Source: Schmidtea nova (Eukaryota). Taken from it: 64,000 bases of DNA. The notes under the pieces were generated by a model. The model was not told where the DNA came from and ran no database searches. It saw nothing but the letters and a program-made list of their open reading frames with translations. Positions 11,633 to 39,354 of the stretch are shown piece after piece. Location of the stretch: assembly GCA_044892505.1 (NCBI GenBank), contig CM097883.1, positions 256,060,001 to 256,124,000 of the forward strand, read 5' to 3'. The position numbers were made by a program, and so were the translations under genes. The stretch's first letter is position 1. Each line of letters starts with the position of its first letter.

Positions 11633-12996
11633 CATGAATTTATAATATTTAATGCTTCTACCAAGGAATCACGGTTTGATACATTTATGATTTTTTATGA
11701 CTATGCAACTTAATTGAATATTAAATAATTGAGTTAAAAATAATTAAATCCAAAGATTTCTGAAAGTGAAAACTAAAAACAAGTGGCAATTGAAAGAATA
11801 CATATATATTATATAATTTCATATTAATAATTGTTTCTAAAAGGTGTAAATGCGAAAAAATTAATTAATTAAAAAATTATTCATTCCATCAATTATCATG
11901 ATGTAGAAAATAAAATTTCGTTTTTGACAGCCGATAGCTTAAAATTTGTTAAACTAGAAATATTATAGATTGTGTTGTCAGATTGATTTCGTATCCTTAA
12001 GAAAACTTGAGAAAAAAGCGAATCTCATTGTAATTATTTATGATAACTCTGAAAACAAATGAAATTTACTCGATTTTGATTGGCTCGTCTATAGGTAAAA
12101 TTTTGAATTAAAATTTGTGTAGTGAAGACTTAAAATTTCAATTTTGTTATGTATTAATTAAAGGAAATAGAACTGGTGAAATTCAACTTAAATTTTATTA
12201 GACAGTTTATTGTTATTGAAGTTCAAGAAATCAAGTCTGAAAAGTTGAAAATAAAATATTAAGAAATTGAGAATGTGGTTAAAATAATTTGTATAATTTT
12301 TGAATGAAAATAGTTTAAAGAAAAGTAAATTTGTTTCAAAATTAGAGCCAAATGTAAATTTTCTAATTGTTATAATAAAAGTAGTAAATTAAAACAAAAA
12401 AGTAAAATGAAAACTAATTATGTGAATATTATGAATGCTGGGATTATGGGTGGGTTTTAAGTAATTCAAATAAATTATTAATCATTAATTGAACGACTAT
12501 TGATGAGTACGTATACTAGGGATTTCCACGCCCATAACCATACATAACATGACTACTACACGCGTATGCCCTTGACTATTCCCCACTAGTCAAGTTGGTA
12601 CTGCATACGGTGGTGGAAAAATGATGGGCAGGTGAGCTTTGTTGCCAAAACTACTCCCCATTTATCTTCCCTCGGGTCCTTGCTGCCGATAGAAGGTCTT
12701 ACGCATTTACATTCTATGGATGTTCGTTTCTTACTGCATTTTATACTACATATCCTTATGATCTATCATACGCTTTTCCCAATGACTTTCCTTAATTGAT
12801 CTACAATGTAATTAATCAGTCTCGGCGTAGAAATGGTCGGTTTGAGAAAATTACGGATGCGATTTTCTATTTCGATGATTTCAGTGTTGTTAATTTATTT
12901 TATTTAGTAACCTCGCCCGATGAGAGACAAAATTTACACAGAAAATACTTTTATTAAAATACTAAAATCAGGTTGTTATTTTACATGGATATTTTC

Positions 12997-13581
12997 CTAA
13001 GCGAATTCCAGACTGATCTCCTGAATCAACTCCGCTTCGGTTAAGGAGTTCAAGTGGTGGATTTGTTCGTCCAGGCGCTTTGCAACTTCTCGGCGACGAC
13101 GACGCTGTCGCGATCCCATTCGGTGTTTCCGAAGCTGTTGGTTTATGACCGGTGCTGACGCTATTGTTCTCGGGGGATCACTGAGAAAAACAGGCAAATC
13201 TTCCGTTGTAAGAGAGGGGGCCATGATGATTCCCTCTTCCGTCCCGCAAGCGACATCTTGGTGAGTGCATTGTATCCAGCGCTGAGCTGTGATCGGCCGG
13301 ATTAGCGCTCGTAATTCGGAGTCGATGTAACTTCTTGTTACTGCATTTAGGCAATTTCGGAGTTCTCGCTGGACGGCATCTAGTTCCAATTTGGTTGTGG
13401 CCAGTGCTTCCTGCATTCGCTCCAGTTTTTTCGACTGGTCCTTCATTTGTTCGGGCGAGAACCACTTCGCTCTCAATTCATCGTTGGCGACCGTGAGTCG
13501 CTTGATCTGGCGCTGCTGGTCCCTCAACTTCCTCTCTTGGACTTGTCCCATGATTTTCTTGGAATTTTCTGAAGTCGGCAT
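12997..13581 (-). CDS. LTR-encoded ORF-B (194 aa): coiled-coil, Arg-rich motif; 3' LTR copy
   Basis: ATG-initiated GC-richer island between AT-rich spacers. TTCAG/ACAG acceptor-like sites precede the ATG and AATAAA follows. Contains RKHRMGSRQRRRRR. Confidence 0.6.
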   Translation of the reverse strand: MPTSENSKKIMGQVQERKLRDQQRQIKRLTVANDELRAKWFSPEQMKDQSKKLERMQEALATTKLELDAVQRELRNCLNAVTRSYIDSELRALIRPITAQRWIQCTHQDVACGTEEGIIMAPSLTTEDLPVFLSDPPRTIASAPVINQQLRKHRMGSRQRRRRREVAKRLDEQIHHLNSLTEAELIQEISLEFA

Positions 13582-13910
13582 GCTGTCTGAATATTATAAC
13601 GATAAATTCGCTGGAGGACCTATCAACAATGTTATTTTATTTAGTCTATTATTTACTATCATTAAACGAGATGCATACTAATGTTTTTAATTATTAAGTT
13701 TGTTGCCAAATTAATTAACTATCTAATTATTGAAGGCTCAAAAATTTTATTGAACTAATTTGAGATTATTAAATGAAATTCCTAATGACTATAACAACTA
13801 CAATACTGGATATTAATAAATCTACATTACGACACTATTAACAAAATGAGATACTTCAGAAATTTTTTAAAACATTTATTAAATTCAAAAATAGGTGGCC
13901 ATTGATTCAA

Positions 13911-14387
13911 TTATCCATCTTCGGTCATTTTTCCCCGATACGAAAATATCGATTTAATTTGCAAATTTGTGTGGATTCCTGGGCTATTGGACGAGGCTTG
14001 CTGGAAGCGGATTCTCTCAGCTTCTCGAAGGGGTCGTATGGCTGTATTGAACTTGAACCCCAATTCCTTGAAGGTAGAGGCTGGAATGAACCCCCAATAA
14101 ATGACACATTTCGGGAATCCTCCTTTGTCCAACATCAGGATGAACCAGGCGGCGTGCCATGATTCGAATTCCTCATCTGGAATGATTGGCCAACTAGCGC
14201 ATCCCCGGTACCATACGTGGTGCCGTGGATGGTCCCATACTGTAAATGGACAGGCGGTTTCGAGCTCTCGGCGCCATGCCCACATCTTTTGATGGATTTG
14301 CTGTAAAATCTCGAAAGGAGCCGGCTTTAATGGGCTAACTCGGGCTCGTTCTTGTCGTTTTTTGATAGTGTATCTATGCTTAGTCAT
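13911..14387 (-). CDS. LTR-encoded ORF-A (158 aa), Trp-rich, unknown function; 3' LTR copy
   Basis: ATG-initiated GC-richer island. TTCAG lies 15 nt upstream and AATAAA downstream. No family recognised. Confidence 0.55.
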   Translation of the reverse strand: MTKHRYTIKKRQERARVSPLKPAPFEILQQIHQKMWAWRRELETACPFTVWDHPRHHVWYRGCASWPIIPDEEFESWHAAWFILMLDKGGFPKCVIYWGFIPASTFKELGFKFNTAIRPLREAERIRFQQASSNSPGIHTNLQIKSIFSYRGKMTEDG

Positions 14388-15236
14388 GATTCCAAAACGA
14401 TGCTGAATTTTATAATAGTTACAATTTACATCAATAATTAATCATAGTAAATGTTATCTCTCATCGTGATATCTTTATTATTTGCCTACCCCTTAGACCT
14501 TAACTGAAATCAAGGGAAAACTGCTGTTCGTTACGGTATGCATTACTCTCGTATCTACCTAGATTTATCTGTTTACGATCAATATTATAGTCGAAAAATT
14601 GGTGATTTGTCTGCTTGGATTTTCAAAATATTGATGCCTCAAAACGGAAGCTCTCTCACGTCATGTATCCCTAGCTTATTCGAAAAACGCTCTTTTGTAT
14701 CAAATGCAGTCGACATAATTTTTCTAAGGTTTATTAGACGTTTGTTAAACAGCTGTGCTGTGGTGAGGGTGAAAAATTGTGCCTCCTCCCGGTTAACAAA
14801 TTCTTTCATATCTTTAAGCTTTATCAAAAAATTATCGTCCCCTCTGTAGCTAAAATGATCGGAAAATAATTCCCCGGATTTGTTGGGTGTCCCATGTGCA
14901 AATCTCAACCATTACTAATAAAATTATGTTTTGTTATTTATTACTTTACCGTGTGTGGAGCCCTCGAGCACCACGCCACGGACGGACACCTTGGGAACCT
15001 AAAGCTCCCAACGGCGCAAGATTAATAAGATAGTTTAAATAGTTCAAATATAACATAAATCATAATGAGATAACTAATAAATTATAATATGATAATGACA
15101 TATGAATACAACGATATCAAATAATAAACGCAAATATACCAAAAATACCTCAATTGAATTCTGAAAATTTATTGATCAAAATCGGTCTAAACGGTGATCG
15201 TCGTCGGGGCAATGTGCAATCTAATGTGAATTATTA

Positions 15237-15360
15237 GTCTGAACACAAGTCTAAGTTTTTTGCAAAGTCTAAATTTCAGTCTCAAACAAAGTCACAAGTC
15301 TAAAATCTATATTCTAACAAAGTCTACTAAAGTCAAGGATCTAGTCTACCAAAGTCTGAT
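15237..15360. promoter_or_regulatory. Cluster of ~10 (A/T/C)AGTC(T/A) motifs in the U3-side part of the LTR (also 40681-40804)
   Basis: AAGTCT-like hexamers recur every ~10-15 bp. An enhancer role is inferred only. Confidence 0.35.
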
Positions 15361-15782
15361 TTTATGAAAAATCTGATCAGTATTTATACTGATCAGTCGT
15401 GTCTAGACTGACCAATCAGGTTTGGCCAGTTTCATGGTGGTTTTTAATTATTGTTTTTGATTCTAATTAATTTTTATTTTTTAGATTGTATTCTTCCTTG
15501 GAGGTCCGGGTTTCAAAAACAATTATTCAATAACAAGTACTTTTATTTGGTTTTAATTATTATTATTTGTATTTTATTTGTTTTTAGATGTCTCCTGGGC
15601 CCGTTAATATCTATAAATTCATTTATTTTTATTTATAGCTTGTACTTAGTTATTCTATATTTTTACTATATTATTCCTTTCTTTTAATAAATAAATATTC
15701 CCCTTTTTACCTTATTTTTCTCTTTTTTGTTTTAATTAATCTACTTTTATTTCACTGTTCCCTCTATTTGGCTGGCCCAACA

Positions 15783-15985: not shown

Positions 15986-16558
15986 TTACACAAGCTCTTT
16001 GATTTCATGATTGGTATTGGATTGGATTGGGGTTCTTCCGCCGATTGTTCGTAGTTCGTAGTGGCTTTGGATTCGGTTTAGGTGTTTTCTCATTCGCTTT
16101 TGGGTTCTGATGTCTTGTATTGTTGTTCGATTCAGGATGACTTGTTTTTGTTTTAGGATCTTCACTCGGTATGATGTTATGAGGATTGTGATCGCGATAA
16201 TGGTCACGCTGAGTGCAAGGATTATTATAATTGCGATGATCCATTTTTCTTGATATTCTATCTCTGCTTGGGCTAAGCTTTTTATGGGTTCTCGACCTTC
16301 TTTTAGGGTTTTTCTGATTGTTTACAATTTGATTCGATGTTCATATAGGACCTGTTGAAATTTTTCATCGTTTGGGTTGTCTGATGTTATCTGTTGAAGT
16401 TGGGTGATTTCTTGTGTTGCTTCGCTGATTAGTTTATCTAGTTCTTGATAGGTTTTCTCGGGTAGGGCTCGTAGCTCCTTCTCTGTGAGTTGAAGATCTT
16501 CTCTTTGTAGGGTGATTGTTATTAGGTATAGGAATATCGGTATTCTGAGCTTTTTCAT
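15986..16558 (-). pseudogene. Accessory type-I membrane protein (~190 codons) with one in-frame TAA
   Basis: ORFs 16322-16558 and 15986-16207 share a frame: signal-like MKKLRIPIFLYLITITL, coiled-coil, RIKL*TIRK, TM WIIAIIIILALSVTIIAITILI, basic tail. Confidence 0.7.
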
Positions 16559-16639
16559 ACTGTTTCTTTACAGATAGGTCAATACAATTTGACACTACAT
16601 TTCATACAATTATTTACAGAAATATATTTTCCGCTTTAT

Positions 16640-17701
16640 TTACACAATCGTCTCGTTCGGTTCGTAGAAACCTTCGTCCTGAAGCTCTACTTGGTTCGTG
16701 GGGAGTGGTATCCAAACAACCCTGCTCCTCCACATTTCGACTTCATCTCGATACATGTGAGATATCTGGATCTCCTCGTCCAGCAAATATTCTAGGTAAT
16801 TTGCTTGTTCTGTTAATGTTTCTATTTGCTTCTCTAATTCGATTACTTTTGTCTTTTGTTCGTCTTCTTTCGTCATTTTTGTTACGGCTGCCGTTATACT
16901 TGCTTCTTTGGGTATTACTGATACTGTTACTCGTTTCTGTTTCAATTCTTCGTTTTCTTTCATCAGATTCGTTAAATTTTCCTCATAACTTTGTTTCTCT
17001 TCCTTTAACCTTTCTCTGGTTCTTTTTAGCTCTATTTTCTTCTGGGTAATCACTCCTTAGTAACCATTTATATCTCTCTTCATCTCTTCTTCTTTCTGAT
17101 TCCATATTCCGTTGAGCATAATCTTCAGTTGTTCTTGATTAGCTAGTTCTTCTCCCATTCTTTGAACTTGATAGGTTAGTCCTTTAATTTTCTTTGCTTG
17201 TTCCCGGATAAATTGCTGTCTCTTTGTATTCCATCTTTTATTCAACACTTCTTGGTGTATTTTCTGTTCTAACTCGTCTTTTAATTCGTCGATCTCTTTA
17301 TATAATTTCCAGTCATCACTATAAGCTGTCTTTTCTATTATTTCCCTAGCTTTTTCGTAAGATTCTTTCGCTTCTTTCTTCCAGTATCTTGCTTGTTCTG
17401 TAATCGAATATATCTTGTGTTCGGCTTCCATCTGCTGTCTGTCTCTTTCCTCTCGTCGCTCTTTCATCATTCTCTGGTAATATTCCTTTTGTTGTTGTAG
17501 CATTTTGTATACTTCTTCTATTTTTTCTCGATTTCTTTGACTTGATCTTTCCGCTTCTTTTAATAATTCGGCTTGTCTCTCTTTCTCCTCTTGCTTTCCA
17601 TAATATGCATTGACCCATATTTCAATCTGTTCTAGATGATCGCTAATCGCTTCTGCTTGATGCATCGTAATTTCCTGTAAGCATACTTCGATATTTCCCA
17701 T
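16640..17701 (-). CDS. Accessory long coiled-coil protein(s): 214 aa + 137 aa in one frame, separated by one TAA
   Basis: ...GGT TAC TAA GGA GTG ATT... at 17057-17059. E/K/Q/R heptad-rich throughout. Poly-T tract and TTATAG precede the ATG. Confidence 0.7.
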
Positions 17702-17817
17702 TGCTATAATTTCAGAAAAAAAAAAATTTTAATCGGTTTATATATCAGTTATTTTTGTTTATATAATAATTTTTGGGTATTTAACTGTACATATTATTTA
17801 CATGATCACTTTTCTTG

Positions 17818-19200
17818 TTACGTCAACCATCCTTTTCTATCCGCTTTCTCATTCCTTTCCATTTCTATGTATAGGGTGTCTGCATATAATCGTTCCCATA
17901 GGCTTTCTTTTGTTATAAACATCGGTTCTCCCGCTGCTAATCCACATTCTGTGGTTGGTTTCTCGCTCGTACTCGCATGTTTCTCTGTCTCAAAGAATTT
18001 TTCCACTGGTTTTGTTACACTTCTGATTCTTACAATGACTCCTACTTTCAAGGGCCATTCTACTAGGTCGTCGTATTCCCCTTTACATAGCGAGAAAAAT
18101 ATTGACACATGTGTTCCTCGTCCTCTTCCGTCTCCATTTGGGTATAGCTTCAATCTCACTTTAGCTCCGTTTCTCCATAAATAAAATGGTGGGCTTATTA
18201 CTGCTGTTTTCGTCATATTTCTGGCCTCTGTTAATTTGTCTCTAAAATCTGTCACTTTCCACACATATGGTGCGATTGGTAACTTTTCCTCGGTATCCTG
18301 GGTGAGTTTGTTGTACTGGATTTTCATTCCTTTAGCCAATTCTTCGATAGCTTTTATCTTTCCCTCCATCTTTTCTCGTGTTAGTTCGAATTGCTCTCTG
18401 GTTTCCAACAGTAGGTTTACCATTATCTTGTGTGACTCTATTTCTCTTTCTAATTTTGTGATTGTTTGTTCGGTTTCTTTTGTTGCTTCGTTTGTCATTT
18501 CCGCATGCTTTAGCAATGCTTCCTCCAGATGTTGTTTCATGGTTTGTTGCGTTCTTTTCTCCATACATCCCTGTTTGTTATAAGGACATTCCCTTGGTTT
18601 CTCCGTGCACACTTTCCAATGTTCTTGTAATTTTACTTCTACCGTTATCTCGCATTCGTTTGAACATATTCCTACATATTGTCTACATACTTTCTCCTCT
18701 TTTACATTCAGGTGTTCTTCTTCGATCTTTCTCCTCGTTTCTCGAGTTCCACAATATTCGCATAGACTTTCCTCTTCTTTACATTCATCTTTGTGCTGCT
18801 CTTTATTCTTTATAGTTATCTTTTGTTGGCATTTGTTACATTCAGTTCTCTTCTCTTCGCAGTTCTCCAGATGGTTCTCGAGATCGCGTATTTGTCCTTG
18901 CCATATACATGGTTGATTTATACATTCGGTTTTCGTGTTCATGATTTCTCTCTGAGTTGCTCTATCTGGTCCGGTTTCTTTGAATTTTATTTGTCCTTCT
19001 TTGCATTCTGGACATTCTGGTGGTCTTTTCATACTTAACTCGTGTATGCATTTGGTACATACTCTGCATCCGCATAGGGTTTGTCTTGGTTTCAATATTA
19101 TGTTTTTACAATTTACACAAGTGAGTCTCTGACTCCATTTCCTGTTCTCGGCTCTCAAAATTTCGATTATCCGCTCTTCGGCTTTTCCTTCTGTATTCAT
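17818..19200 (-). CDS. TRAF: Intronless TRAF-family protein (RING, TRAF zinc fingers, coiled-coil, MATH/TRAF-C), 460 aa
   Basis: CVNC...CGCRVCTKC...CPEC RING; CINQPCIWQGQIRDLENHLENC and ECPYNKQGC zinc fingers; YVWKVTDF...SPPFY...LKLYPNGDGRGRGTHVSIFF...GEYDDLVEWP MATH signature. Confidence 0.95.
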   Translation of the reverse strand: MNTEGKAEERIIEILRAENRKWSQRLTCVNCKNIILKPRQTLCGCRVCTKCIHELSMKRPPECPECKEGQIKFKETGPDRATQREIMNTKTECINQPCIWQGQIRDLENHLENCEEKRTECNKCQQKITIKNKEQHKDECKEEESLCEYCGTRETRRKIEEEHLNVKEEKVCRQYVGICSNECEITVEVKLQEHWKVCTEKPRECPYNKQGCMEKRTQQTMKQHLEEALLKHAEMTNEATKETEQTITKLEREIESHKIMVNLLLETREQFELTREKMEGKIKAIEELAKGMKIQYNKLTQDTEEKLPIAPYVWKVTDFRDKLTEARNMTKTAVISPPFYLWRNGAKVRLKLYPNGDGRGRGTHVSIFFSLCKGEYDDLVEWPLKVGVIVRIRSVTKPVEKFFETEKHASTSEKPTTECGLAAGEPMFITKESLWERLYADTLYIEMERNEKADRKGWLT

Positions 19201-19291
19201 TCTACAATGATATATACACTTGATTTGTTATCTATTTTTTGATTTTTCTTGTTTTTGTTTTTACATATTTACAATTTTTCGCTTTATTTAT

Positions 19292-19648
19292 CTACGGCCC
19301 GTTTGTTGAATCTGGTTCTGGGTCATTTTCTGATCTGTTTATTGCCCAATTTGTCCATCCATCCTCTGCTTCTTCTGTCTCTCCCATTGTTAAACGGTCT
19401 ATCTCTATTGCTTGTCTCTGATTTATGTCGCTCATCACTTGATTCTCTCTGGTAAGTTGCGTTATCAATCTCTGTTGCTCCTCGATTCTGTGGAGTTGTT
19501 CAAAACTATTATTATAACTTTCGGATAACAAATTCTGTTTCTCAATTAACTGATTTTGTAGTGAGTTGATTGTTCGTATTAACATGTCACACTGGGCTTT
19601 CCATCGCATAGCCATAGTAGTTTCTGCTATTTCTTCCTGTTCGTTCAT
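19292..19648 (-). CDS. Accessory coiled-coil protein (118 aa)
   Basis: ATG preceded by TTTAG-AAA; Q/E-rich heptads; element-like codon usage. Confidence 0.6.
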   Translation of the reverse strand: MNEQEEIAETTMAMRWKAQCDMLIRTINSLQNQLIEKQNLLSESYNNSFEQLHRIEEQQRLITQLTRENQVMSDINQRQAIEIDRLTMGETEEAEDGWTNWAINRSENDPEPDSTNGP

Positions 19649-19773: not shown

Positions 19774-22700
19774 CTATATCACCATCACTGTCTTTCCTTC
19801 GTATCGCTCTTCATCTTCTATTTGTCTCCAAAATTCTTTACCTTTCGTCCTCCTTTGGAATTCTTTCTGTACTTCTTCCGGTAATTCTATACTGTAGTTC
19901 ATAATCTTTATATCTGGCCAATGTGTTATTGGTTTCTTGTTGAATACATCATATATCCATATTATTAATAATACTGTTATTACTGGAATAGTTGCTGCTA
20001 GTATTCCTAGACCAAATAGTTCTCTAACTTGTTTGTTTACGTCCATCTTCGTAATTTCACTCTGGTTAATCATTGGTCCGTATTGTCCCTTTAGTTTAGT
20101 TAGTAGTTGTTCTCGTTCTTGTTGTTTTCTTTTAACTTCTTTAATTACTTCTTCCGGCGTCCATCTTGCGTAAGGGTCTATTACTACTTGTTCTGCGTCC
20201 ATTCGTTTCGTTGTCTGACTTAATTCTTTAAATTCGAGTTTTCTCACTTTCCCTTTGGACGTTGAGTTTACCGGTGTGTAGTACGTTTCGCATCTTTCCT
20301 GCTGATTTCCCAGTATGTCCGTCTTTTCTATCGCACATATCTCGTATTCGCTATTGAATTTCAGATTTCTGATACTTATTTCCTCTTTTCCTTTTACGTT
20401 TTCGCAGTATCGTGGCTGTCTTTCTTTTTGTTCCTGAACTACTGCCCAACATATTTCTAACGTTTTATTGTCTATTCTCCATAGTATAAGAGTTGCTGTA
20501 GTATTCTTTTCGGTTTTTATTTGTATTTCTTGGTTTTTCTGTTGTCCATTAGGTTTAAAAGTAGTGGTATACCTCGTTTTTCCTTTGTTCCGTTGTCTTC
20601 TGCTTTTTCGCGTTGTCTTTCCAATTCTTGTTCTGGTGGGTGTTTTATATATTTTGCATTCCAGTTCATTTACTGTTATTTTGTCGCTCTTCCTGATCAG
20701 GCATATTTCGTACGTTTGATTACTTTCTAACCCTTCTATCTGTATTGTGGTTGTTCCTCTGTTTGTTCGACATTGCGGCGGTGTATTCTGGTTTGTTTTC
20801 TTTTCCTGCTTCTTCCAGCATACGCCTTTGACGTCCGGTTCTATTCCGGTTAACTCTAACATTATAGTTGTTCTCCGTTTGGTGCGTTTATTTCTTCTTC
20901 CTCGTCGTATGAACTTTATTGTTTCCCCAGGTTGAAATGTTTTACAAATTGTCGTTCCTTTCTTGTGTCTTTCTTTTTCTAGTAAACATAGTTCATACGT
21001 CCTGTCTGCTTTTACTTCTGATATCTTGGTTACTTTATTTGTTTTCCTTTTCCGACTCGTCTTTATTTCGCTTACGCCAATTTCTTCGTTGCTTCTGGCC
21101 CAACACTTTGGGTTGGTGTTTTGGGTGTCGTTCATCTCTGTTACTGCCATTGTGTCAATGTCTATCCCTTCTTCTAACCGTTTTAACATTGTTAATATGA
21201 GTGCTAAACATAGTAATTCTGTTTGGTAGGTCACTCTTTCAGTTTCATTTGTGGTTACTCTTACTTCGGGCCTGTCTATGGTAATTTGTATAGTTGGCGT
21301 TGTTCGTCTGTCTATTGTCTGAGGTTTCTTGTTTTTTGTTCCTTGTGTCTCTGTTCTTCCACACTTTCCTACGACATAGTCTCCTTTGGATGACTGCTGT
21401 ACTGTTATGGTTACTTTGGGTGTTAGGTAATTTGCACATGCAATTGTCTTATGTGATCTCGGATCCTTTGGTTTCCGAACGGTGCACATTCTGTACCAAG
21501 TATCTAGCTCTAGGTCATCGATCTCTATGATTTCTTGTTCGTATTCTGAGATCCTGCAATCCATTGGACTATTTTGTCCCGAGATTTTGTCCTTTTTTGA
21601 CCAACATACTCGTTCGATTCCTTTTGCGTTTCCAATTTGTATTGTCGCTCTTTCTTCACATATCATTCCTTGAGTGGGACTAATTAAGGTCATGATTACC
21701 GTTAGTAATAATAGTTCTGGTTTAAAGAATGGGTTTATTGTTTGTTTGTAGCCTGTTCTTTTTACTTCGTTTTTATTTTTATAGTTGTTGTTTCTTTGTT
21801 TCCCAAATTCATTTTTCTTATCATTTTTCTCTGTGTCCCTTCCTTTCTCTTCACTGTCCTCTTTATCTGATAACTCATGATCCTCTGGATTTTCTCGAGT
21901 ACTATCGTCGTCGTTTCCTGTATTGTCGCCTCCCCTTTGGTCGTTGAAAATGTCGTCCTCGACATTAATTGCTTCTATCATTTTTTCATACGTTATGGTT
22001 GTGAGTATACTTGCTTCGTATTCTTGTGTTTCTGCCTGCTTAGGTATTTCCTTATCGGTTAATTTACAATCTAGAATCTCTTTCTTGGCTTTTATCCAAT
22101 TATTGAGGTACGTTTTCATTAGTTCTTTCCATTTGTCCGTACGTTCTGTTTCCTTTGGGTTGTTTGTGAATCGTAAATCTTTTCTTCTCATGAAGATGTC
22201 TATTATCTTTGGCCATTTGTTTATTATTAATGCACACTTTATATATAAATTCTGGCCTTGTTCCATGAACTCGTTGATCCTGAATGCTGGTTCATTGGTG
22301 TTTGGGTTCATCCAATTGAGTATTGCTTCGGTTAGTTCAGCGTTATGCATCATGAAATGTACGCTAGCTTTTTTAACCGTCCTTGTAAGATATTCTATTT
22401 CCTCCTGATTTGTGATTGTTTTTATAAAATTTATCACCTCCCAATTGTGCGCTAACAACGCTACGTCTAGTATTGAGCTGTCTTTGTTAGTTCTTCCCAT
22501 GAGTCCTGCACCTGCTTCGTACAGTTCCTGTAACACTCGGGTTTTTGTGTTCGCTCTTGCTGCGAATATCATGAGGGTATCTCCCTTTTTATCTTTCCTG
22601 TTCATGTCACTTCCGCAATCTTGCATCAACCGTGCAATTTCGACTACCCTCCTATCTTTTCCTGCTCGTAAGGCTCTATGTATTGGCAATACTCCATTCT

Positions 22701-25700
22701 TTGTTAATAAGAAAGTCACTGGCATTTCTCTTTTTATGATCATCATATCGTTTTCATTGTAAGTTCCTTCCGCATATGCGCGTACCTTTTCCACAATTGC
22801 TCCGAGTATCTCCAGTGTATGTTTAGAATTTTCGAATTCTGGTAATAGTTCTTTTGCTTTGTCCTGTATCGCATCTAACCTTTCTTGATATGGTACTTCT
22901 GCGCTGAAAAGTGGTGTAAATTTCCTTTTGCTTTCTCTTTCCTTTCGACATAGGAATTGTTTGCATTTTTCGGGGTGGTTTAATATGTCTATTAGTTTGT
23001 CATACTCCTCCTCCACCGTTTTGTATTTGTCTTGAAAATTGGATATATCTTTGTAAGTTATCGACTTGGTTAGCGATTTTGCACACCATTCCCTAATATT
23101 ACTGAATAATGCTTCTTTTTCACTTTCGAATTTATACTCCTCTTTGTTTTTGGAAATTGTGATATTTCTTCTGTCCAATACTATTAACAGTGTTTTCTGA
23201 TCACAAACTAATTTTAATAGGAATTGTAATAACGCGTTTTGTCCTTCACTGTATACCTCGTTTATATTTAATACCCATGTATCATTTTCGGATCTTTTCC
23301 ACTTTATTAGCTTGCGTATTGTTTTGCAGTTACCGATTTTTTTTGCCTCCTTGATTATATCACCTTTGATCAGTTCGTCTATTTCCCAAGTGGCCTTCTC
23401 GATTATTTGTTTGAGCATTATCTGATTTGAGCTCCATATTGCGTGATTCAAGACTGTTTTGTTTTCTCTATCGCGTTCCGTCCAGTTGAAATCGGCATTT
23501 ATCAAAAGGTCTATTATTGCTTTATCCGATTTGTAGATGGCTGCTACCATTAATGGTGTTTCTTGTTCGCTATTCCCAAAACCAAGGTGTTGGTTTGTTT
23601 CCTTAGCGATTTTTAGAAATTCTTTTACTCTCTCTACTTCTCCCCATTTTATGGCGTTATGTAATGCTGGTTGTCCTCCTATGTCTTCTAGTGAAAGTAT
23701 TTCTGGAATTTTTTCCAGTAGTTCTGAAATGACTGGTTTTGTTGGTAGTCCCCTTGCGTAATCACTAATTATCGACTGAATATCTCTTAATATATCGTCT
23801 CTGACATGCCATTTTCCCATTATTTCTCTGGCTTTTAGTACAATTTCCTTGTTTCTTTTTTCTTGTTGCTTGTTTTCTGCTTCGGTACTTTCATCGGTTG
23901 CTCTGAGCATATTTATCCTGGCTGTCTGGGATCTTGTTATTATTCGTTCTTCTGGCACTGTGGTTATTGTTTTTGGTACTTTCTTACATCTGCATGTATT
24001 AACGTATATTGGTCGTATCAATGGTCGATTAACAAGTTTTACCTTCACATTGTTTTCCTTTTTGTATATAACTTCGTAAGGGCCTTTTCCTGGTCGTTGT
24101 AGTTTTTTAACGGTTCCTGGTATTATTTCTGGGGTTTCTATCATTACCCAATCTCCGGGTTTAAGATCATTTGTTTTAACATTTTTCTTTTGATCGTGTA
24201 GGTCCTTGTAACTTTCTTGATAAAACTTTATGTTTAGTTCTGCTGTCTTCCATATCTCTTGCATTCGTTCTTTGAATTTGGTGACGTAATCATCTTCCTC
24301 CATATATTGAGACAAGGGTGGTTGATATTCAAGATCTATTGGCATATTGCATTCCCTTCCATACATTAATTGAAATGGACTCAATTTTGTTGCTGCGTGT
24401 ATCGACATTCGGTATGCCATTAGACATAGCTTTACGTATTCATCCCAATCTGTTTGGTGTTTGCTTACATAATTGGATAACATTCGAATCAATGTGCCGT
24501 TAAATCTTTCCGTTTGTCCGTTGGTTTGCGGATGATATGGTGACGTTCGTAATTTGGCTATTCTGAAGTAATTTGTCACTTCATCTAGTATTTCGCTCAT
24601 AAAATTTGTTCCTTGATCTGTTAGTATTTGTTTCGGGGTTCCGTATCGACAACATATTTCCTCTACTAAAATTCTTGCTACGGTCTTTGCTTTTTGATCC
24701 GGCATCGCAAATGCTTCAGGGAATTTAGTCAAATAATCCGTTATTACCAATATATATTGATTCCCGTTTAAACTTTCTGGCAATGGTCCTATTACATCCA
24801 TCGCAATGGTAGTCATTGGTTCCGCTGGTATTGGCATGGGTTTTAAAGGATTTTTCCATTTCTTCCCACTATCCTTTCTTGTGGCACAAGTTAAACAGTT
24901 CTTTATCCATTCCTTTACGTCTTCGTCCATTGTTGGCCAATAATATTTTTGTCTCATGCGATCTAATGTTTTCTTATTGGACATGTGTCCTCCCAACTTT
25001 CCGTCGTGGTATTGAGTTATTATCTCTTTTCGTCTATTACCTGGCAGACACATTAATCGTTTCTCTCCATCTCGTATTAATAACCATCCTTTTTCTATTG
25101 TGTATCGATGTTGGTATTTCCTCATGTGTTCTTTTAACTCCGCATTGTCTTTGAATACATCCATATTCCGTGAGCTTAGGAATTCTATGATGGGTCTTAG
25201 TTCTTTATCCTCTTGCTGATCTTTCTTCAACTCACTGAAATCCAAATCCTCTGCTATCATTATGCATATTCTTTGCACTTCTGGGTCTGTTAGTTCTGGA
25301 AACGTTAATCTTGACATGCAATCTGCGTTGGCATTCGCTTTTCCTGATTTGAATTTTATATCTGGTGAATATTCTTGTAATTGCATCGCCCATCTCATTA
25401 ATCTGCTGGATGTTTCCTTATGTTGTCCTAGCCATACAAGTGGTTGATGATCTGTGGTTATGCATATAACGTGTCCCCATAATAGATATTTAAAGTGTTT
25501 TATTGCTAATATTATTGCCAATGCTTCTCTTTCCGTTACTGAATAATTCTTCTCGTGTTTCTTGAATGTTCTGCTATAATATCCGATTACCCGCTCTTTT
25601 CCCTCGTCATCATATTGTCCTAACACTGCTCCTGCTGCATATCCACTTGCGTCGGTTGCGAGTAAAAATGGCTTCTTGAAATCCGGGTGAACCAATATTG

Positions 25701-25767
25701 GTGCAGTTATTAACTTATCTCGTAATGTTTCGAAGGCTGTTTGTTGTTCGCTTCCCCATATGAACAT
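19774..25767 (-). CDS. pol: Polyprotein 3' part: RT connection, RNase H, integrase, ankyrin modules, FN3-like ectodomain, TM
   Basis: ATDASGYAAGAVLGQ (RNase H). HDGKLGGH...CLTC, MDVIGP, TDQG, GQTERFN and GKGPY (integrase). Continues the upstream ORF after a 1-nt deletion. Confidence 0.95.
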   Translation of the reverse strand: MFIWGSEQQTAFETLRDKLITAPILVHPDFKKPFLLATDASGYAAGAVLGQYDDEGKERVIGYYSRTFKKHEKNYSVTEREALAIILAIKHFKYLLWGHVICITTDHQPLVWLGQHKETSSRLMRWAMQLQEYSPDIKFKSGKANANADCMSRLTFPELTDPEVQRICIMIAEDLDFSELKKDQQEDKELRPIIEFLSSRNMDVFKDNAELKEHMRKYQHRYTIEKGWLLIRDGEKRLMCLPGNRRKEIITQYHDGKLGGHMSNKKTLDRMRQKYYWPTMDEDVKEWIKNCLTCATRKDSGKKWKNPLKPMPIPAEPMTTIAMDVIGPLPESLNGNQYILVITDYLTKFPEAFAMPDQKAKTVARILVEEICCRYGTPKQILTDQGTNFMSEILDEVTNYFRIAKLRTSPYHPQTNGQTERFNGTLIRMLSNYVSKHQTDWDEYVKLCLMAYRMSIHAATKLSPFQLMYGRECNMPIDLEYQPPLSQYMEEDDYVTKFKERMQEIWKTAELNIKFYQESYKDLHDQKKNVKTNDLKPGDWVMIETPEIIPGTVKKLQRPGKGPYEVIYKKENNVKVKLVNRPLIRPIYVNTCRCKKVPKTITTVPEERIITRSQTARINMLRATDESTEAENKQQEKRNKEIVLKAREIMGKWHVRDDILRDIQSIISDYARGLPTKPVISELLEKIPEILSLEDIGGQPALHNAIKWGEVERVKEFLKIAKETNQHLGFGNSEQETPLMVAAIYKSDKAIIDLLINADFNWTERDRENKTVLNHAIWSSNQIMLKQIIEKATWEIDELIKGDIIKEAKKIGNCKTIRKLIKWKRSENDTWVLNINEVYSEGQNALLQFLLKLVCDQKTLLIVLDRRNITISKNKEEYKFESEKEALFSNIREWCAKSLTKSITYKDISNFQDKYKTVEEEYDKLIDILNHPEKCKQFLCRKERESKRKFTPLFSAEVPYQERLDAIQDKAKELLPEFENSKHTLEILGAIVEKVRAYAEGTYNENDMMIIKREMPVTFLLTKNGVLPIHRALRAGKDRRVVEIARLMQDCGSDMNRKDKKGDTLMIFAARANTKTRVLQELYEAGAGLMGRTNKDSSILDVALLAHNWEVINFIKTITNQEEIEYLTRTVKKASVHFMMHNAELTEAILNWMNPNTNEPAFRINEFMEQGQNLYIKCALIINKWPKIIDIFMRRKDLRFTNNPKETERTDKWKELMKTYLNNWIKAKKEILDCKLTDKEIPKQAETQEYEASILTTITYEKMIEAINVEDDIFNDQRGGDNTGNDDDSTRENPEDHELSDKEDSEEKGRDTEKNDKKNEFGKQRNNNYKNKNEVKRTGYKQTINPFFKPELLLLTVIMTLISPTQGMICEERATIQIGNAKGIERVCWSKKDKISGQNSPMDCRISEYEQEIIEIDDLELDTWYRMCTVRKPKDPRSHKTIACANYLTPKVTITVQQSSKGDYVVGKCGRTETQGTKNKKPQTIDRRTTPTIQITIDRPEVRVTTNETERVTYQTELLCLALILTMLKRLEEGIDIDTMAVTEMNDTQNTNPKCWARSNEEIGVSEIKTSRKRKTNKVTKISEVKADRTYELCLLEKERHKKGTTICKTFQPGETIKFIRRGRRNKRTKRRTTIMLELTGIEPDVKGVCWKKQEKKTNQNTPPQCRTNRGTTTIQIEGLESNQTYEICLIRKSDKITVNELECKIYKTPTRTRIGKTTRKSRRQRNKGKTRYTTTFKPNGQQKNQEIQIKTEKNTTATLILWRIDNKTLEICWAVVQEQKERQPRYCENVKGKEEISIRNLKFNSEYEICAIEKTDILGNQQERCETYYTPVNSTSKGKVRKLEFKELSQTTKRMDAEQVVIDPYARWTPEEVIKEVKRKQQEREQLLTKLKGQYGPMINQSEITKMDVNKQVRELFGLGILAATIPVITVLLIIWIYDVFNKKPITHWPDIKIMNYSIELPEEVQKEFQRRTKGKEFWRQIEDEERYEGKTVMVI
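19950..21720 (-). other. C-terminal membrane-protein module of the polyprotein: signal peptide, 4 FN3-like repeats, polybasic sites, TM
   Basis: PELLLLTVIMTLISPTQG|MICEE. Repeats share C-W...(I)xxL...Y-x-[IML]-C...C-x-x-[YF]-x-[TP]-P. RNKRTKRR at ~20872-20907. Sequons NET, NDT, NQT, NTT, NST, NQS. TM LFGLGILAATIPVITVLLIIWI. Confidence 0.65.
22420..23680 (-). other. Two ankyrin-repeat modules (~3 repeats each) after integrase
   Basis: GQPALHNAI, QETPLMVAA, ENKTVLNHAI (~23400-23680); GVLPIHRAL, KGDTLMIFAA, KDSSILDVAL (~22420-22705). Confidence 0.85.
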
Positions 25768-28700
25768 ACGTCTTTCTTTACTAGCTCCTGGATTGGTTTT
25801 GCAATTCCTGCGTAATCCTTTATGAATTTTCTATAGTAACCGCATAATCCGAGAAATTCTTGGATCTGCGTTATCGTCTTTGGTACTGGACATTCTTTTA
25901 CTTTATCAATGTTTCTGGGATCTGGTTCCTTTCCTTTTGCGGACACAATATGTCCTAAGAATGTCACTTTCTCTTTTGCCCAATCGCATTTCGATGGTTT
26001 GAGCTTGAGTTTCCATTGTCTCAATCTCACAAATACATCTCTGATATCTTGGATGTGTTGTTCAAATGTGCTTGAGTAGATTAGTAGGTCATCAATGTAA
26101 ACCATGCATTGTTTTATGCCGTGGGTGACAAAATTCATACATCTTTGAAATGATGCTGGTGCATTGGTTAGTCCAAATGGCATTTTCCTAAATTGGTACA
26201 AGTCTCTTCCGATAGTGAAAGCAGTTTTCTCTTTGTCTTCCTCTTTCATTTTAATTTGCCAGTATCCGCTTTTCAAATCCAATGATGTAAAATATGCCGC
26301 TCCTTGTAATGTCAATAACATCTCGTTGATGTCTGGTAATGGGTATGTATCCCTTTTTGTTACCGCATTTAATCTCCGATAATCAATACAAAACCGTTGT
26401 GTTCCGTCTTTCTTTTTCACCATTACAACTGGGAATTGCCACGGTGAGCAGCTTGGTTCAATTACTTCTGCGTCTAGCATTTTCTGTACTTCTGCTTCTG
26501 CTACTGATTTTTGCGCTTCAGCTAACTTGTATGGTCTTAACGCAATAGGCGTTTTGTCTGTTAGTGGAATCGTATGTAGTGTGACGTCGCATGTCCCTAG
26601 ATCTAAATCGGATGCTGCGAATATGTCTTTATATTCCATCAGTAACCTTTCTAGCTGTTTCTTTTGATCCTCATTTAGTAGTTGGCTATCAATGTTCCAG
26701 GTGGGTTCCTCCTCTTTTACTCCTTCTTTTATTGGTATTTCGATATCTATCATTGGAGTTAGTTTACCTAGTCTTTCATTTTCATAAATTATTTTATCCT
26801 CTTCATCGAAATTTACTACATTTATTGGGATTTCTCCGTTGTCATTCGCACTCACTAATCCCCTTGCCATTGGCAACGACTTTCTCTTTTCAAATCTTTT
26901 ACTGGGTTCAAAAATCATGTCACCTTCTATTGTAGGGTCTATTTTTACGAAGCATATTTTCTCTCTCCGTGCTGGTACGATTATTTGTTTCGAACTTGTT
27001 ACTTTTGCTTCTATTGCGCATATCTGTCCTGTCCTGTCCTTTAGTCTCATTGTTCCGAGATCAATAACTATTTCTTTAAATAATGCTGGCATTAAATCTG
27101 TGCCTATAATGCATGGTACGCTTAGTGCTGGTATTACTGCTACGTACGTTTCGATTTCCGTGTTTTGATGTTTTATCTTTACCCACCATCTTCCGGCAAC
27201 TTCTACTACTTCTTTACTGCATGCTATTACGTGAACGTTGGTTCTCTCGATATCCCGTCTTTGTTCTTGTGGTATCCATTTTATATCTATTGCTGAGATA
27301 TTTGCTCCTGTATCAATCATCGCTTCTATTTCCCTTCCGTTAATTTCGATTGTTGTAGTTAATACCGGACCGGTGTTTGATGACATTACTGCAATTGTAT
27401 GTGAGTCTCCTTGCGGATCTACGCTTCTGCACCGTCTCGTTCTATAGTCTTCTGGTATCATAGGATATATGTTTGTCATCGGCATCATTTGCATTGTATT
27501 TTGTCTCATCCCTGGTGTTGGTTCTTGGTACATGGTTGGTGGGGGTGCGTAACACTTCCACATTTCCGCTGGATTCTTTTCGACATACTGTGGTACTTGA
27601 TTTTTAAATACTTGACCTCCTTCGTTATCATCATCATCGTCGTCACTGGAATCGTCTTGGGTTCTGTACCCTTTCATTCTTTCCCATAGTCCTTTTCTCT
27701 CTTTCTTTAGTTGTTGTCTTGCTTGCTCGTTATTCATTATCTTTTTAAATTTTCGTCCCACCTCTTCATCGGTTCCTTTCATTTTTGCCAGTATTTTTAG
27801 GAGTCTCTTTATTCGGTGAATATCTTTTGAATGACCGTGTAATACCATTGTTTTAGCCAAAAATGGTAAGAATCCTACCACCAATTTCCAATTTACTTTC
27901 TTTTCTCTTTTATAGATGTCAAAACAGGCTAACATTTGCGTTATTATTACCCGTATTATTTGTATAATTAGTATAACACCAAGTATTCCTGCCATCATTT
28001 GTCCAAATATTAAAAATCTTCCCCACATCGCTTTCATCATGTTTTCCGTTGCCTTCTTAAAGTGGGCTGGTGACAATAATAATTCGTAATTTGGTCCACC
28101 TTGGTAATTTGTTCCTCCTGTTATTGTTACAATGCTGGATAACACCGCTTCCATTCTTGCTGGAAATAGTATGTTTTGTCTTGCTGCTTCTAAGTCTTTT
28201 GCGCTATAGAATCCCATATTACTTACATCTACGTCTTTAAATTTTCGTCCTTTTGATAGTTGCATCAATTCAAATTCCCTTGGTGCTGGTACCTCTGTTC
28301 TTGACGGAAACATAACCCAATTCCCGTCTGGTTTTTGGTATAGTGGTCCATATGCGTTGCTGCAATTGAAAGGATTTGGTTCGAAGCTTATTGGATTTAT
28401 GATTCTTGTCACTGGTTGCACATATCTTACTTTCCCTTTATATTCGATTTCTAGTTCGTTAGTACACTGACCTGGTTGTAATTTTGTCATTGTCGCTACC
28501 TTCGCGTTTGTCTTTTTACATATGTATACATACATGACCTCTCCGACTACCCTTCCAAAATGACCTTCTCTCAATGGTAATAATGGCATTGCACTATCAG
28601 GGTTTGTGATTGCTACCGCTAGTTTTGTCTTTAATATTTCCCTATTTAATATGCAATCGTTGTTAATTAAATCGTAATACACTTTTTGTAGTGACGCTTG

Positions 28701-31700
28701 TCCTCTATGGAACAGAAAATCCATTTTATTGTTCATGTAAAGGTGTAATTTAACATCGTTCGTGTGCACTTTGCGTTTCGCACTAGGTACTTCTTGTTTT
28801 GATACAAAAATGCCGGGGTAGTTGGTTTCCAACATAGCTACTCCGCATTTCAAGGCTGTTTTTCCTTTTACAAACCTCATTCCGATATCTGCATCTGAGG
28901 TAATTAGTACCGTTGGTGTATTTCTCATTTTAATTTGTTTTTCTTGTGTTCGGGTTTCAATCTTTTTCTCTCCTCGTACTGTGTCTTGAAGTATTTTTCC
29001 TCTTGCTACCTCGTCTTCTTCTTCCTCTTGGAAGGTTTTCCCTTGTATCTCATCGAATTCTGCTTCCTTTAACAGTTGTAGTTGACATTCCTTTCCTCGT
29101 ATCTGGTAGGTTAAGGTTGACATACCGGTTTGGCAAGTGTTTGACTCGATTTTGCACATGGGCAGGGTTTTCATTTCTCCCGTTGTTGGATCGAAGAATG
29201 CCTCGTACGTTTTTAATTCTACTGTATAGGTATCTATTACCACTAGGTTTGTTGCTGCTACTCCGAATATTGGATATGTTGCTCCTTGGCAGTACCCTTC
29301 TCCTCCCGTAATAGCTCCTGCTACATAATAAGTTTGTTGCAATATCACTCCCGTTTTTCCTCTTATCTTTACTCTATCTCTAGTCTCTACTTCTCCATGT
29401 TTAAATAATTTTTCGCAGTCTTCTCCTTGCAGCATTACCGATTCTCTTTCCGTTCCTGGCATCACGATTGCTGAATAATGGCGGTGTCCACAATAAAAAG
29501 CAAATCTGGTTTTATAAACTTTGCATTCCCTGACCATTGTTCTTATCAGTTCAGCTTCCTGATATACGTGGTATAATTGTCTCTTTTTTAATGTTTTTAA
29601 CTCCGTTGGGGTTGCGTCCTTACATTGTTCTGTCCCTCGTAGTGAATATTTCTCACCTAATGCCATTTGATCGCAATCGAATACTTCAAATGCTGTTGCG
29701 CCGTCAGTACTAATCATCCATATTAACATCATCATAATAATGGAACTCAAGTTTAGTGACGATTTCCCGTTTCCTGTTCCCGACTTTTCCTTTTCCAATT
29801 CTCCCAATATCTCTTCGAATTTCCTTTTCATATTTTTGGCTTGGTTTTTCTTTTGGTTCGTTTTTGTGAATGTCTCCCATCCTCCTTTACTGATGATGTA
29901 CGGTTCTATTTCCTTCTCTATAATTTTGGCTGTATTCTTTATATGTCTTTCAAGTGCTGTGGGTTTCAGTCGACCTCTACTCAGTGTCAGCAGATTGTAA
30001 ATGGTGTATGCCATAGCTATTAAATATTTGTTATCCGTCTCTGCTCCTTCCGTTAACTTCTTTATCAACATCGTGGTTCCTTGCCAATCTAGGTGGTTTG
30101 ACCTTGTCTTCTCTTTTATTAATTCTGGTAGGATTGGTGCGATGGCGCTATGCAGTGATTTCGCCCTTTCGCTTATTTCGTTTATTCTCCACCATTTCTT
30201 TAATTCCGGATCGATTATTGCCAGTATTTCTATTAACATCTTTGATATCCATTCTTCGCCTTGGTATGTTTGTGTTGTTTCTTTTTCTTTCGTTTCGGCT
30301 ATTTTATTTAGTTTCTTTAGACACAAATCCCATTGATCCCGTCTTTTTTCCTCTCTTGATTTTATCACTACATTTGCTGGATCTATCTTGGGTCTACCTC
30401 TAGGTCGTTTATCCATTGTCGTGCCCATTTCTACTAATCTTGTTTCTCGTCCAGTTTCTTCTGTGACGTCTCTTGGTTCATTGGCTCTTTCTTCTAACCA
30501 TCTTTCCATTTCTTGTGTGAATTGTACATTTTCTACATTTGCCCTCCTTGCTTCCTCTTCTGCTATTTCATTTACTTCTTCGATGATTATTTCTTGTTCA
30601 ACTTCATCTTCGGTGTTGGTTACCGGTATTGCTGTTGGTAATTCTTGAATTCTTTCGAAAATATTATCATCTTTCTCTTTTGTTAGCTCTATTAACTCCT
30701 CTAACATATCATCGCTATCTGTAAAAATTTCGTCTACATCGTATGGTTCTGGTGGTGTTCTTTCTCTTGTCTCTCTTGGTGTTGTTCTAGCTTGTTCTGA
30801 GCTTGTTCCTGGAGTCATTACCGATTTCATTGGGCTCGGCGTACTCATACTTCCTTTTGGTTTCTTTTCCTCTTTCAATTTTAATGGTTGGCCTGCTATT
30901 GCTGCCACTGTCAATGTATTTGCGATATCTAATTGCGCTGGCGTTATTCCAATTTCTAAGCTGTTATCTAATGATCGTCCTTGGTGTTGTAAATGGAATG
31001 GTGGTTCATATCTCAATTTCTTTTTAATGTCTCGAACTTTCTCCGCTATCCCTACCCAAAACTCTTCTTTTTCCTGGTTCGGATATACTATTCTTAGGTG
31101 TACTTTCTGTGGCGATTCCTGCGAGAATTCCTGGTTTCTCCATTTTTTAATTACGTGATCCAATTGTTCTGGACACCACTCGTTAACTCTTTTGTATTCG
31201 GCGATTGCTTTTGCTACTTTACGCAAGCATGTTATGTCTTCTCCATTAACTACGAAAAAATCTGCTAGACCTTTTACTACTTTTCTCTTGCCGTGCGCAT
31301 TGGTTTTTAATATTTCGACAAATTCCTCTGTTTTTTGTTTCTCTCTTTCCAACCACATGGTTGCCGTTTCTGGTCCGTCTAAATCTGCTGGCATGGCTTT
31401 TCTTGTTACCATACAAACCCTTCCCGTTTCCGGTTTGTGATCGTCTTCTATGCCTATTTCGTATTCCTCTTCGTATTCGCCTGCTTTTGGTTCCCAACAT
31501 TTTCCTCGTTCGTTCCATTGTTTTTCTACAGGTGTTCGTAATCGTCTGTTGAGATTGAGTTCTTCTAATACATCTTCCCATTCTGGCCAAATCCGCCAAT
31601 TTCGATAAATGTCTACTATTTGTTGTAATTTATGCACAACTTCTTTTTGTCGTTCCCGTTCTCTTTTCTCATCCTTAGCAGTTTCTCTTGGTTTATCGTC

Positions 31701-35930: not shown

Positions 35931-35968
35931 ATCCGGATATCCCTATTGGCTCCTTTGGCCTCTAATTA

Positions 35969-36136: not shown

Positions 36137-36179
36137 CAATAACGCCTAGCTAGGTCATTCAATATGGCTCTTTGGCCTC

Positions 36180-37855: not shown

Positions 37856-37873
37856 ATCCCGGCTGAGCCCCCA
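37856..37873 (-). other. Primer-binding site, tRNA-Pro type
   Basis: TGGGGGCTCAGCCGGGAT, 16/18 identical to the classical tRNA-Pro PBS TGGGGGCTCGTCCGGGAT; 6 nt from the LTR end. Confidence 0.88.
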
Positions 37874-38440
37874 AATTTATGCTGGGATTATGGGTGGGTT
37901 TTAAGTAATTCAAATAAATTATTAATCATTAATTGAACGACTATTGATGAGTACGTTTACTAGGGATTTCCACGCCCATAACCATACATAACATGACTAC
38001 TACACGCGTATGCCCTTGACTATTCCCTACTAGTCAAGTTGGTACTGCATACGGTGGTGGAAAAATGATGGGCAGGTGAGCTTTGTTGCCAAAACTACTC
38101 CCCATTTATCTTCCCTCGGGTCCTTGCTGCCGATAGAAGGTCTTACGCATTTACATTCTATGGATGTTCGTTTCTTACTGCATTTTATACTACATATCCT
38201 TATGATCTATCATACGCTTTTCCCAATGACTTTCCTTAATTGATCTACAATGTAATTAATCAGTCTCGGCGTAGAAATGGTCGGTTTGAGAAAATTACGG
38301 ATGCGATTTTCTATTTCGATGATTTCAGTGTTGTTAATTTATTTTATTTAGTAACCTCGCCCGATGAGAGACAAAATTTACACAGAAAATACTTTTATTA
38401 AAATACTAAAATCAGGTTGTTATTTTACATGGATATTTTC

Positions 38441-39025: not shown

Positions 39026-39354
39026 GCTGTCTGAATATTATAACGATAAATTCGCTGGAGGACCTATCAACAATGTTATTTTATTTAGTCTATTATTTAC
39101 TATCATTAAACGAGATGCATACTAATGTTTTTAATTATTAAGTTTGTTGCCAAATTAATTAACTATCTAATTATTGAAGGCTCAAAAATTTTATTGAACT
39201 AATTTGAGATTATTAAATGAAATTCCTAATGACTATAACAACTACAATACTGGATATTAATAAATCTACATTACGACACTATTAACAAAATGAGATACTT
39301 CAGAAATTTTTTAAAACATTTATTAAATTCAAAAATAGGTGGCCATTGATTCAA

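Follow-up and report, generated by a model that had tools for sequence, protein, structure and literature searches.

The window analysed here, a stretch of 64,000 nucleotides from Schmidtea nova (assembly GCA_044892505.1, contig CM097883.1, positions 256,060,001 to 256,124,000), carries on its minus strand a retrotransposon of 28,791 bp (12436-41226) in host DNA of ~25-30% GC. Its long terminal repeats (LTRs) of 3,347 bp each have TG...CA ends, differ from one another at 3 positions and are flanked on both sides by the target site duplication (TSD) TTCA. By its sequence features, the element is a young member of Ty3/gypsy with an anatomy like that of Burro, to which it is likened by description. 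Both LTRs contain, on the sense strand, two ATG-initiated open reading frames (ORFs) of 158 and 194 amino acids (aa), referred to here as ORF-A and ORF-B (Table 1). On sequence statistics, these are very probably real accessory genes of the element.

The initial annotation had placed protein-coding genes inside the LTRs as GC-richer islands, and shuffle tests lend statistical support to this. The two islands have GC contents of 0.51 and 0.48, compared with roughly 0.2-0.3 in the spacers, and their edges lie near the start and stop codons. An ORF pair of this kind arose in 0/2000 dinucleotide shuffles of the whole LTR, and in 0/2000 shuffles each of 300-nt and 150-nt blocks, which leave the GC islands in place; among the 300-nt block shuffles, 2/2000 had one sense ORF of at least 194 aa. 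Taken alone, the island of ORF-A was open by chance in 37/5000 shuffles and that of ORF-B in 26/5000. The ORF frame also has the most protein-like composition of the six frames (matched by 5/1000 shuffles for ORF-A and 0/1000 for ORF-B), and ORF-B shows a codon-position bias (p=0.0024). That both ORFs merely arose by chance where a long LTR happens to be GC-rich would be compatible with the lack of homologues, the lack of periodicity in ORF-A and the low protein-atlas recognition described below, but is highly improbable in view of the empty outcome of all three shuffle schemes, the rarity with which the islands are open, and the match of their edges to start and stop codons. As had been rightly cautioned, LTR identity is no evidence of selection; the sister LTR is the only other copy, with one coding difference.

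Each ORF had also been described as flanked by an acceptor-like AG and an AATAAA. Both signals are present, but each is frequent on its own: AATAAA occurs in 465/1492 non-coding 50-nt windows and YAG in 745/1642 20-nt windows. A third frame, reported at 89 aa, is indeed open (chance 92/5000) but has a TTG start, its first ATG giving 56 aa. Its composition was matched by 11/1000 shuffles, a weaker signal than that of ORF-A or ORF-B, and a 103-aa antisense ORF at 14538-14849 overlaps it; the frame could represent an exon or what is left of a gene. A 20-codon ATG ORF in another phase (14852-14914, minus strand) overlaps its start.

Table 1. Features of the LTR genes and of the surrounding element (positions in the window)
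Feature	Position	Strand	Remark
ORF-B, 194 aa	12997..13581	-	predicted long helix with leucine zipper, disordered linker, Arg cluster running into helix, acidic tail
ORF-B, 5' copy	38441-39025	-	one I/V difference
ORF-B leucine zipper	13360..13425	-	L53-x6-L60-x6-L67-x6-L74
ORF-B Arg-rich motif	13090..13131	-	aa 151-164
ORF-B C-terminal amphipathic helix (predicted)	13003..13044	-	proposed nuclear export signal; no strict consensus match
ORF-A, 158 aa	13911..14387	-	basic N-terminus, Trp-rich (8 W); 5' copy 39355-39831
89-codon open frame	14639..14908	-	no start ATG; weak coding signal
TATAAWATTCAG motif before ORF-A	14403..14414	-	acceptor-like
TATAAWATTCAG motif before ORF-B	13587..13598	-	acceptor-like
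Inverted repeat, upstream arm	14447..14466		20 nt; 59 nt before ORF-A ATG
Inverted repeat, downstream arm	12918..12937		18/20 complementary; 59 nt after ORF-B stop
Candidate LTR promoter	15355..15416	-	reverse CCAAT (LTR 367), TATAAATA (395) inside palindrome, Inr-like TCAGA (424)
AATAAA, candidate end of R	15168..15173	-	LTR 610
Alternative promoter-like site	12738..12783	-	ATTGG (LTR 3000), TATAAAAT (3038)
Two GC-rich RNA hairpins, candidate RNA element	14948..15017	-	followed by donor-like CG|GTAAAGT
3' LTR	12436..15782	-	3,347 bp, TG...CA; 3 differences from 5' LTR
5' LTR	37880..41226	-	same ORFs, offset +25444
Primer-binding site, presumed tRNA-Pro-like	37856..37873	-	6 nt from LTR
Accessory ORF upstream of gag, 153 aa	37054..37515	-	C3HC4 RING (Pfam)
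3008-aa frame	25710..34736	-	Gag (CCHC), weak Ub-like, Monjiviricetes-type fusion glycoprotein, protease, reverse transcriptase
1997-aa frame	19774..25767	-	RNase H, integrase, ankyrin repeats
TRAF-like accessory ORF, 460 aa	17818..19200	-	zinc fingers and MATH
3' short-ORF array	16322..19648	-	118 aa, TRAF, coiled-coil frame (214 + 107 aa, stop between), 78 aa

The two genes differ from gag-pol in codon use. GC content at third codon positions is 0.50 in ORF-A and 0.56 in ORF-B versus 0.33-0.34 in gag-pol, the codon adaptation index is 0.50 and 0.40 versus 0.68-0.69, and CGN codons account for 11/13 and 17/22 of the Arg codons versus 53/185. The 12-nt motif TATAAWATTCAG has 4 copies in the window, only before ORF-A and ORF-B of each LTR; a match of this quality was found in 3/1000 shuffles and 8/351 non-coding window pairs. 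In addition, a 20-nt inverted repeat brackets the pair as the best long-range one in the LTR, with 0/150 block shuffles as good. Foreign codon use, the private TATAAWATTCAG and the bracketing repeat together suggest an acquired two-gene block, and acquisition as a module is the somewhat favoured origin of ORF-A and ORF-B, although the inverted repeat may instead reflect long-range RNA pairing. A nested DNA transposon with terminal inverted repeats was rejected: the 20-nt repeat is present, but there is neither a TSD nor a transposase match. The block might also be a passenger: a mobile fragment nested in the LTR, formerly coding in another place, which is carried along whenever the LTR is copied and is still undecayed. 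Its foreign composition and bracketing repeat agree with this, as does the result that a local search of 120 related polyproteins and 9 related loci held no relative of either protein. The passenger explanation is nevertheless rather improbable, as the lack of a TSD and of transposase similarity suggests that some time has passed since the insertion and still neither frame is disrupted, and as ORF-B, like the element's own genes, has a YAG ahead of its ATG.

Where the ORFs lie within the LTR was judged from promoter and poly(A) motifs. The first 6.6 kb of the element hold 4 TATAWAWR sites, of which only that at LTR 395 has both an initiator-like (Inr-like) sequence at +29 and an upstream CCAAT. 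Among the 58 AATAAA of the 5' LTR and the interior, the one at LTR 610 ranks first for U-richness of the downstream element, with those after ORF-A and ORF-B ranking second and ninth. By these motifs U3 would take up ~425 nt of the LTR and R ~200 nt, leaving a U5-like remainder of ~2.7 kb in which the ORFs lie; these would then probably stand upstream of the primer-binding site (PBS) on the genomic RNA. HIV nef, MMTV sag and the foamy-virus bel ORFs overlap U3, as single genes in U3 of Retroviridae. As with these, the coding sequence is duplicated in both LTRs; in contrast to them, the element is of Metaviridae type and its LTR holds two complete genes, whose probable place is downstream of R. 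The analogy with nef and sag that had been drawn is therefore probably wrong in position, since the signals fall within the first ~630 nt of the LTR. Independently of function, transcription could instead start near LTR 3065, with the ORFs in U3 and expressed mainly from the 3' LTR. The ATTGG at 3000, TATAAAAT at 3038 and donor-like GTAAG sequences at 3049 and 3081 would accommodate such a start, and U3 genes are a generally known retroviral arrangement. This placement is unlikely, however, because the site at 3038 misses the TATAWAWR consensus and is not followed by an AATAAA inside the LTR, so that an R could not be formed canonically.

Several further features lie in this part of the LTR. 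At LTR ~385-412 (15371-15398), CTGATCAGTA arms make up a perfect inverted repeat whose loop contains the TATA box, and the surrounding 90-nt window ranks first in structure among the 109 LTR windows (z -7). Short TAGACT-type repeats occupy 15240-15350 in the putative R, right after the Inr. TATAA motifs before ORF-A and ORF-B were rejected as TATA boxes, being 17-27 nt from the ATG and thus too close, and a candidate PBS relic near LTR 765 was rejected as it has no TGG.

The layout of the coding region points to splicing. A YAG within 8 nt before the ATG is found in 6/8 element ORFs, compared with 100/602 ATGs (P ~4e-4), with enrichment at P<0.01 for all six window sizes tried; the two misses at 8 nt are ORF-A and gag. 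The 3' ORFs are spaced 80-130 nt. Flatworms are described as resolving polycistronic RNA by spliced-leader trans-splicing, and leader-bearing retrotransposon RNAs have been inferred in them (PMC12582326). On this pattern, the element's ORFs are probably expressed via cis-splicing or spliced-leader trans-splicing. Under either route the splice-site-rich genomic RNA must be exported unspliced, and an export route is needed.

ORF-B has features that would suit such a role. Its Arg-rich motif, RKHRMGSRQRRRRR, was borne out as non-random: 8 Arg in 14 residues were reached by 8/5000 protein shuffles and 14/5000 DNA shuffles of ORF-B, and by 0/995 tiles of related polyproteins. The element's own polyprotein has a patch of 7 Arg in 14, however, so the cluster could be a plain nuclear localisation signal (NLS) or nucleolar signal. 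A coiled-coil had been proposed; a leucine zipper is present (295/20000 shuffles; found in none of the other 11 element frames), but heptad periodicity over aa 46-95 was not significant by Fourier analysis (1222/5000). An AlphaFold model from the single sequence predicts helices at aa 4-99 and 145-193 joined by a disordered linker (mean predicted local distance difference test, pLDDT, 69; predicted template modelling score 0.27); the helices are mostly at pLDDT 80-95, and the basic stretch continues directly into the amphipathic helix.

The further proposal that an Arg-rich motif combined with a C-terminal nuclear export signal (NES) makes ORF-B a protein of Rev/Rex design was not supported. 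Against six strict consensus classes, the NES-like C-terminus gave 0 matches, and relaxed matches in the last 30 aa were at chance (2653/5000); a strict class was found somewhere in 4665/5000 ORF-B shuffles. There is no Pfam or PDB similarity to Rev, Rex or Tat, and the 7-Arg patch of the polyprotein leaves room for a plain localisation signal. What remains plausible of the regulatory RNA-export or transactivator role put forward is regulatory nucleic-acid binding, given the Arg cluster, the zipper and the probable splicing. ORF-B is not a member of the Rev, Rex, Tat or bZIP families, as defining features of each were looked for and not found. The N-x7-R/K basic region directly before the zipper that marks bZIP is not present, and Tat was rejected for want of a Cys-rich core (3 scattered Cys) and of a Pfam or PDB match. 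Like HIV Rev, HTLV Rex and Tat, ORF-B is small and basic, and it is predicted to share with them an Arg-rich motif in a helix and a surface for oligomerisation. It differs from them in having no Pfam or PDB match, strict NES, Tat Cys core or identified response element, and in being wholly LTR-encoded.

ORF-B might act on transcription, either as a Tat-like activator on the twin hairpins at LTR 766-835 or as a DNA-binding basic-helix dimer. Its RQRRR resembles the basic motif of Tat, and the basic stretch runs directly into an amphipathic helix. The hairpins (z -3.2 for a window chosen by eye) rank third in structure among the 109 LTR windows, with TATTTAAA ~25 nt upstream; Rfam gave 0 matches in 34700-41300. 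We hold a role as LTR activator to be improbable, as the Tat Cys-rich core and the bZIP Asn/Arg signature are missing, the zipper is N-terminal to the basic stretch and far away from it, and a better promoter lies ~340 nt upstream of the hairpins. Somewhat less improbable, though still unlikely, is that ORF-A and ORF-B are directed at the host, acting on cell death, ubiquitin or silencing pathways, and that the Arg cluster is a nuclear or nucleolar signal only. The recognisable cargo of the element consists of RING, TRAF and ankyrin domains, Burro1 is said, at second hand, to protect stem cells via its inhibitor of apoptosis (IAP) region (PMC13465017), and the polyprotein Arg patch and the missing NES fit as well. 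Set against this, neither ORF has an apoptosis or ubiquitin domain by Pfam or PDB, and 8 Arg in 14 are missing from 995/995 related polyprotein tiles. ORF-A itself is probably a second basic accessory protein, globular and without an assignable activity.

As the best explanation, we propose that ORF-A and ORF-B came into the LTR together, as a two-gene module whose mobile or viral source was richer in GC. Transcription would start near LTR 424, R would end near 630, and the two genes would be reached by cis- or trans-splicing to a YAG just before the ATG, like the other element ORFs. In the least certain step, ORF-B would oligomerise via its zipper, enter the nucleus and bind element RNA via its Arg helix, so that unspliced genomic RNA avoids being spliced, polyadenylated early or retained in the nucleus. 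Such an export job would be that of CERV in Cer1 or of Rev in HIV, but of separate evolutionary origin, and a classical CRM1 NES would probably play no part in it. That ORF-B is an RNA-level regulator, an oligomeric nuclear protein acting on element RNA, is put forward tentatively from this analysis, and the whole scheme of accessory genes with ORF-B as an RNA-export-type regulator is equally provisional; an HIV-Rev-like role is only a guess. In its fullest form, a giant env-bearing Ty3/gypsy element would have captured a two-gene module into U5, each LTR, including solo LTRs that recombination leaves behind, would be a self-contained promoter-gene-poly(A) unit, its polycistronic RNA would be resolved by (trans-)splicing, and one product would belong to a new protein family that came to Rev-like export independently. 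This we think unlikely.

CERV of the Caenorhabditis elegans element Cer1 is the product of a spliced mRNA of a Ty3/gypsy element and is needed for genomic RNA export, as described in PMC10309623. According to the same source, CERV is an accessory protein without homologues that has a leucine zipper, as is ORF-B, with an NLS and an unproven candidate NES of its own. It differs from ORF-B in its 517 aa and in being encoded by internal exons shared with gag plus an ORF spanning pol and the 3' LTR, rather than by the LTR (PMC10309623). No sequence similarity to ORF-B was detected, CERV not having been compared directly.

A number of results weigh against the explanation proposed above. No search found a homologue of either protein. 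In a set of 5.8 billion proteins, none of the near-length candidates was related (0/250 for ORF-B, 0/6 for ORF-A), and ORF-A had 0 matches among 1.84 billion representatives. A protein atlas gave ORF-B a top match of 0.90 to an unnamed cluster of low recognition and ORF-A no usable match, with low recognition scores for the two ORFs (1610, 1552). Pfam returned 0 families at E<=0.1, PDB sequences only 2 unrelated matches (E 0.59 and 1.2), an exact look-up 0/9, and prokaryotic genome contigs 0/600 stretches. ORF-A has no codon-position bias (p=0.83), its YAG is 15 nt from the ATG, and its single-model fold has a pLDDT of 47 with no confident fold; 0 Foldseek matches at E<=0.001 for this low-confidence model are uninformative. 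ORF-B has no strict NES of the six consensus classes. The inverted repeat is only narrowly above the best shuffle (27.0 vs 26.3), no TSD was found around it, and the motif, inverted-repeat, YAG and hairpin tests were post hoc, made after the patterns had been noticed. Promoter and poly(A) site are assigned by motif only, and for full-length RNA to be made, the strong AATAAA at 610 in the 5' LTR would have to be bypassed. Finally, the present copy is defective and perhaps not representative of the active family, as its pol is broken, with two overlapping frames near 25710-25767. The coiled-coil frame of the 3' array is likewise broken by a stop near 17057.

The host element shows the domain order protease, reverse transcriptase, RNase H, integrase, together with LTRs, TSD and PBS, which defines Ty3/gypsy. 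The PBS is presumably tRNA-Pro-like, an assignment to which the Cer1 PBS quoted in PMC10309623 also leads. The giant size (28.8 kb), the in-frame fusion glycoprotein between Gag and protease (PF24664, E 2.3e-68, aa 1935-2276 of the 3008-aa frame, with protease at aa 2461) and the TRAF-MATH, RING and ankyrin cargo are Burro-like. Burro, or GYPSM1, is a giant planarian Ty3/gypsy element of ~29 kb with one gag-env-pol arrangement of ~5,000 codons, in which, as described, gag and protease are separated by a fusion protein of mononegavirus type; it also has ankyrin, TRAF-MATH and RING domains, an upstream accessory ORF, leader tandem repeats, long LTRs and an AT-rich host (PMC6431247), in all of which the present element is alike. 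Unlike in that description, its TRAF is a separate downstream ORF and it has no BIR, Bcl-2 or dUTPase match (PMC6431247). BIR was sought in the element proteins with Pfam, and Bcl-2 and dUTPase in the polyprotein, whereas published Burro domain calls used another method, HHpred; the Ub-like domain of the polyprotein reaches E 0.064 only. The closest among the 120 matches listed are polyproteins at 45-48% identity, several of which share the fusion domain. A quick tree of 34/70 eligible proteins places the element in a 14-row set (SH-aLRT, an approximate likelihood-ratio support, 97) that includes 6 fusion-protein-bearing polyproteins, <=49% identical, with no named Burro among them.

Other observations concern the rest of the element and its surroundings. 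Tandem arrays in the leader from RING ORF to gag (35700-36600) include a 61-nt (30+31) repeat that is perfect, along with two families of looser repeats, and are possible packaging or enhancer elements. The polypurine tract position (15783-15800) is an atypical, small hairpin-like sequence that is not purely purine, and the 6-nt gap between PBS and LTR (37874-37879) is atypical too. After its ankyrins, the 1997-aa frame has three repeats ending Y-E-I/L-C-like, basic patches and a hydrophobic tail (19774-21800); this C-terminal part, without a Pfam match, suggests a membrane protein with beta-sandwich repeats. The frame past the 78-aa ORF (16005-16322) has an Ile-rich hydrophobic, membrane-like stretch. 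In the flanks lie a fragmented hAT-type transposase and a Tc1/mariner-type DDE_3 transposase (2178-4563 and 48671-49534), and 50150-52420 is extremely AT-rich (2-15% GC), laid out as a large inverted repeat. A related pol with 50% identity over RNase H-integrase (L001:2-3382) was found inside a bacterial genome bin; like 8 more distant gypsy-like loci, also in bacterial bins, it is probably eukaryotic contamination.

While the element type is already known, the U5-like placement of ORFs, the signs of a two-gene module and the YAG-before-ATG pattern are new here. The extra ORFs of plant LTR elements are described as internal (PMC7264820), and section 7 of the Burro description mentions no ORFs within LTRs (PMC6431247). 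A literature search found no report of whole genes in the LTRs of Burro or other gypsy elements, though the primary Burro papers (Grohme 2018, Lee 2026) may describe them. The C. elegans element Cer7 may also have an ORF that overlaps its LTR. Giant Burro-like elements are known, and one reportedly, at second hand, benefits its host (PMC13465017), but no explanation was found in the literature for the expression and export of a ~25-kb RNA with a ~6-kb multi-ORF leader. The LTR-borne genes provide a concrete, testable candidate for expression and export of giant-element RNA. Whole genes in U5, if true, would break with the usual LTR layout, and protein-coding cassettes would then be dispersed in the host genome by solo LTRs. 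Should ORF-B prove to export RNA, the Rev function would have arisen independently once more outside Retroviridae, in addition to CERV.

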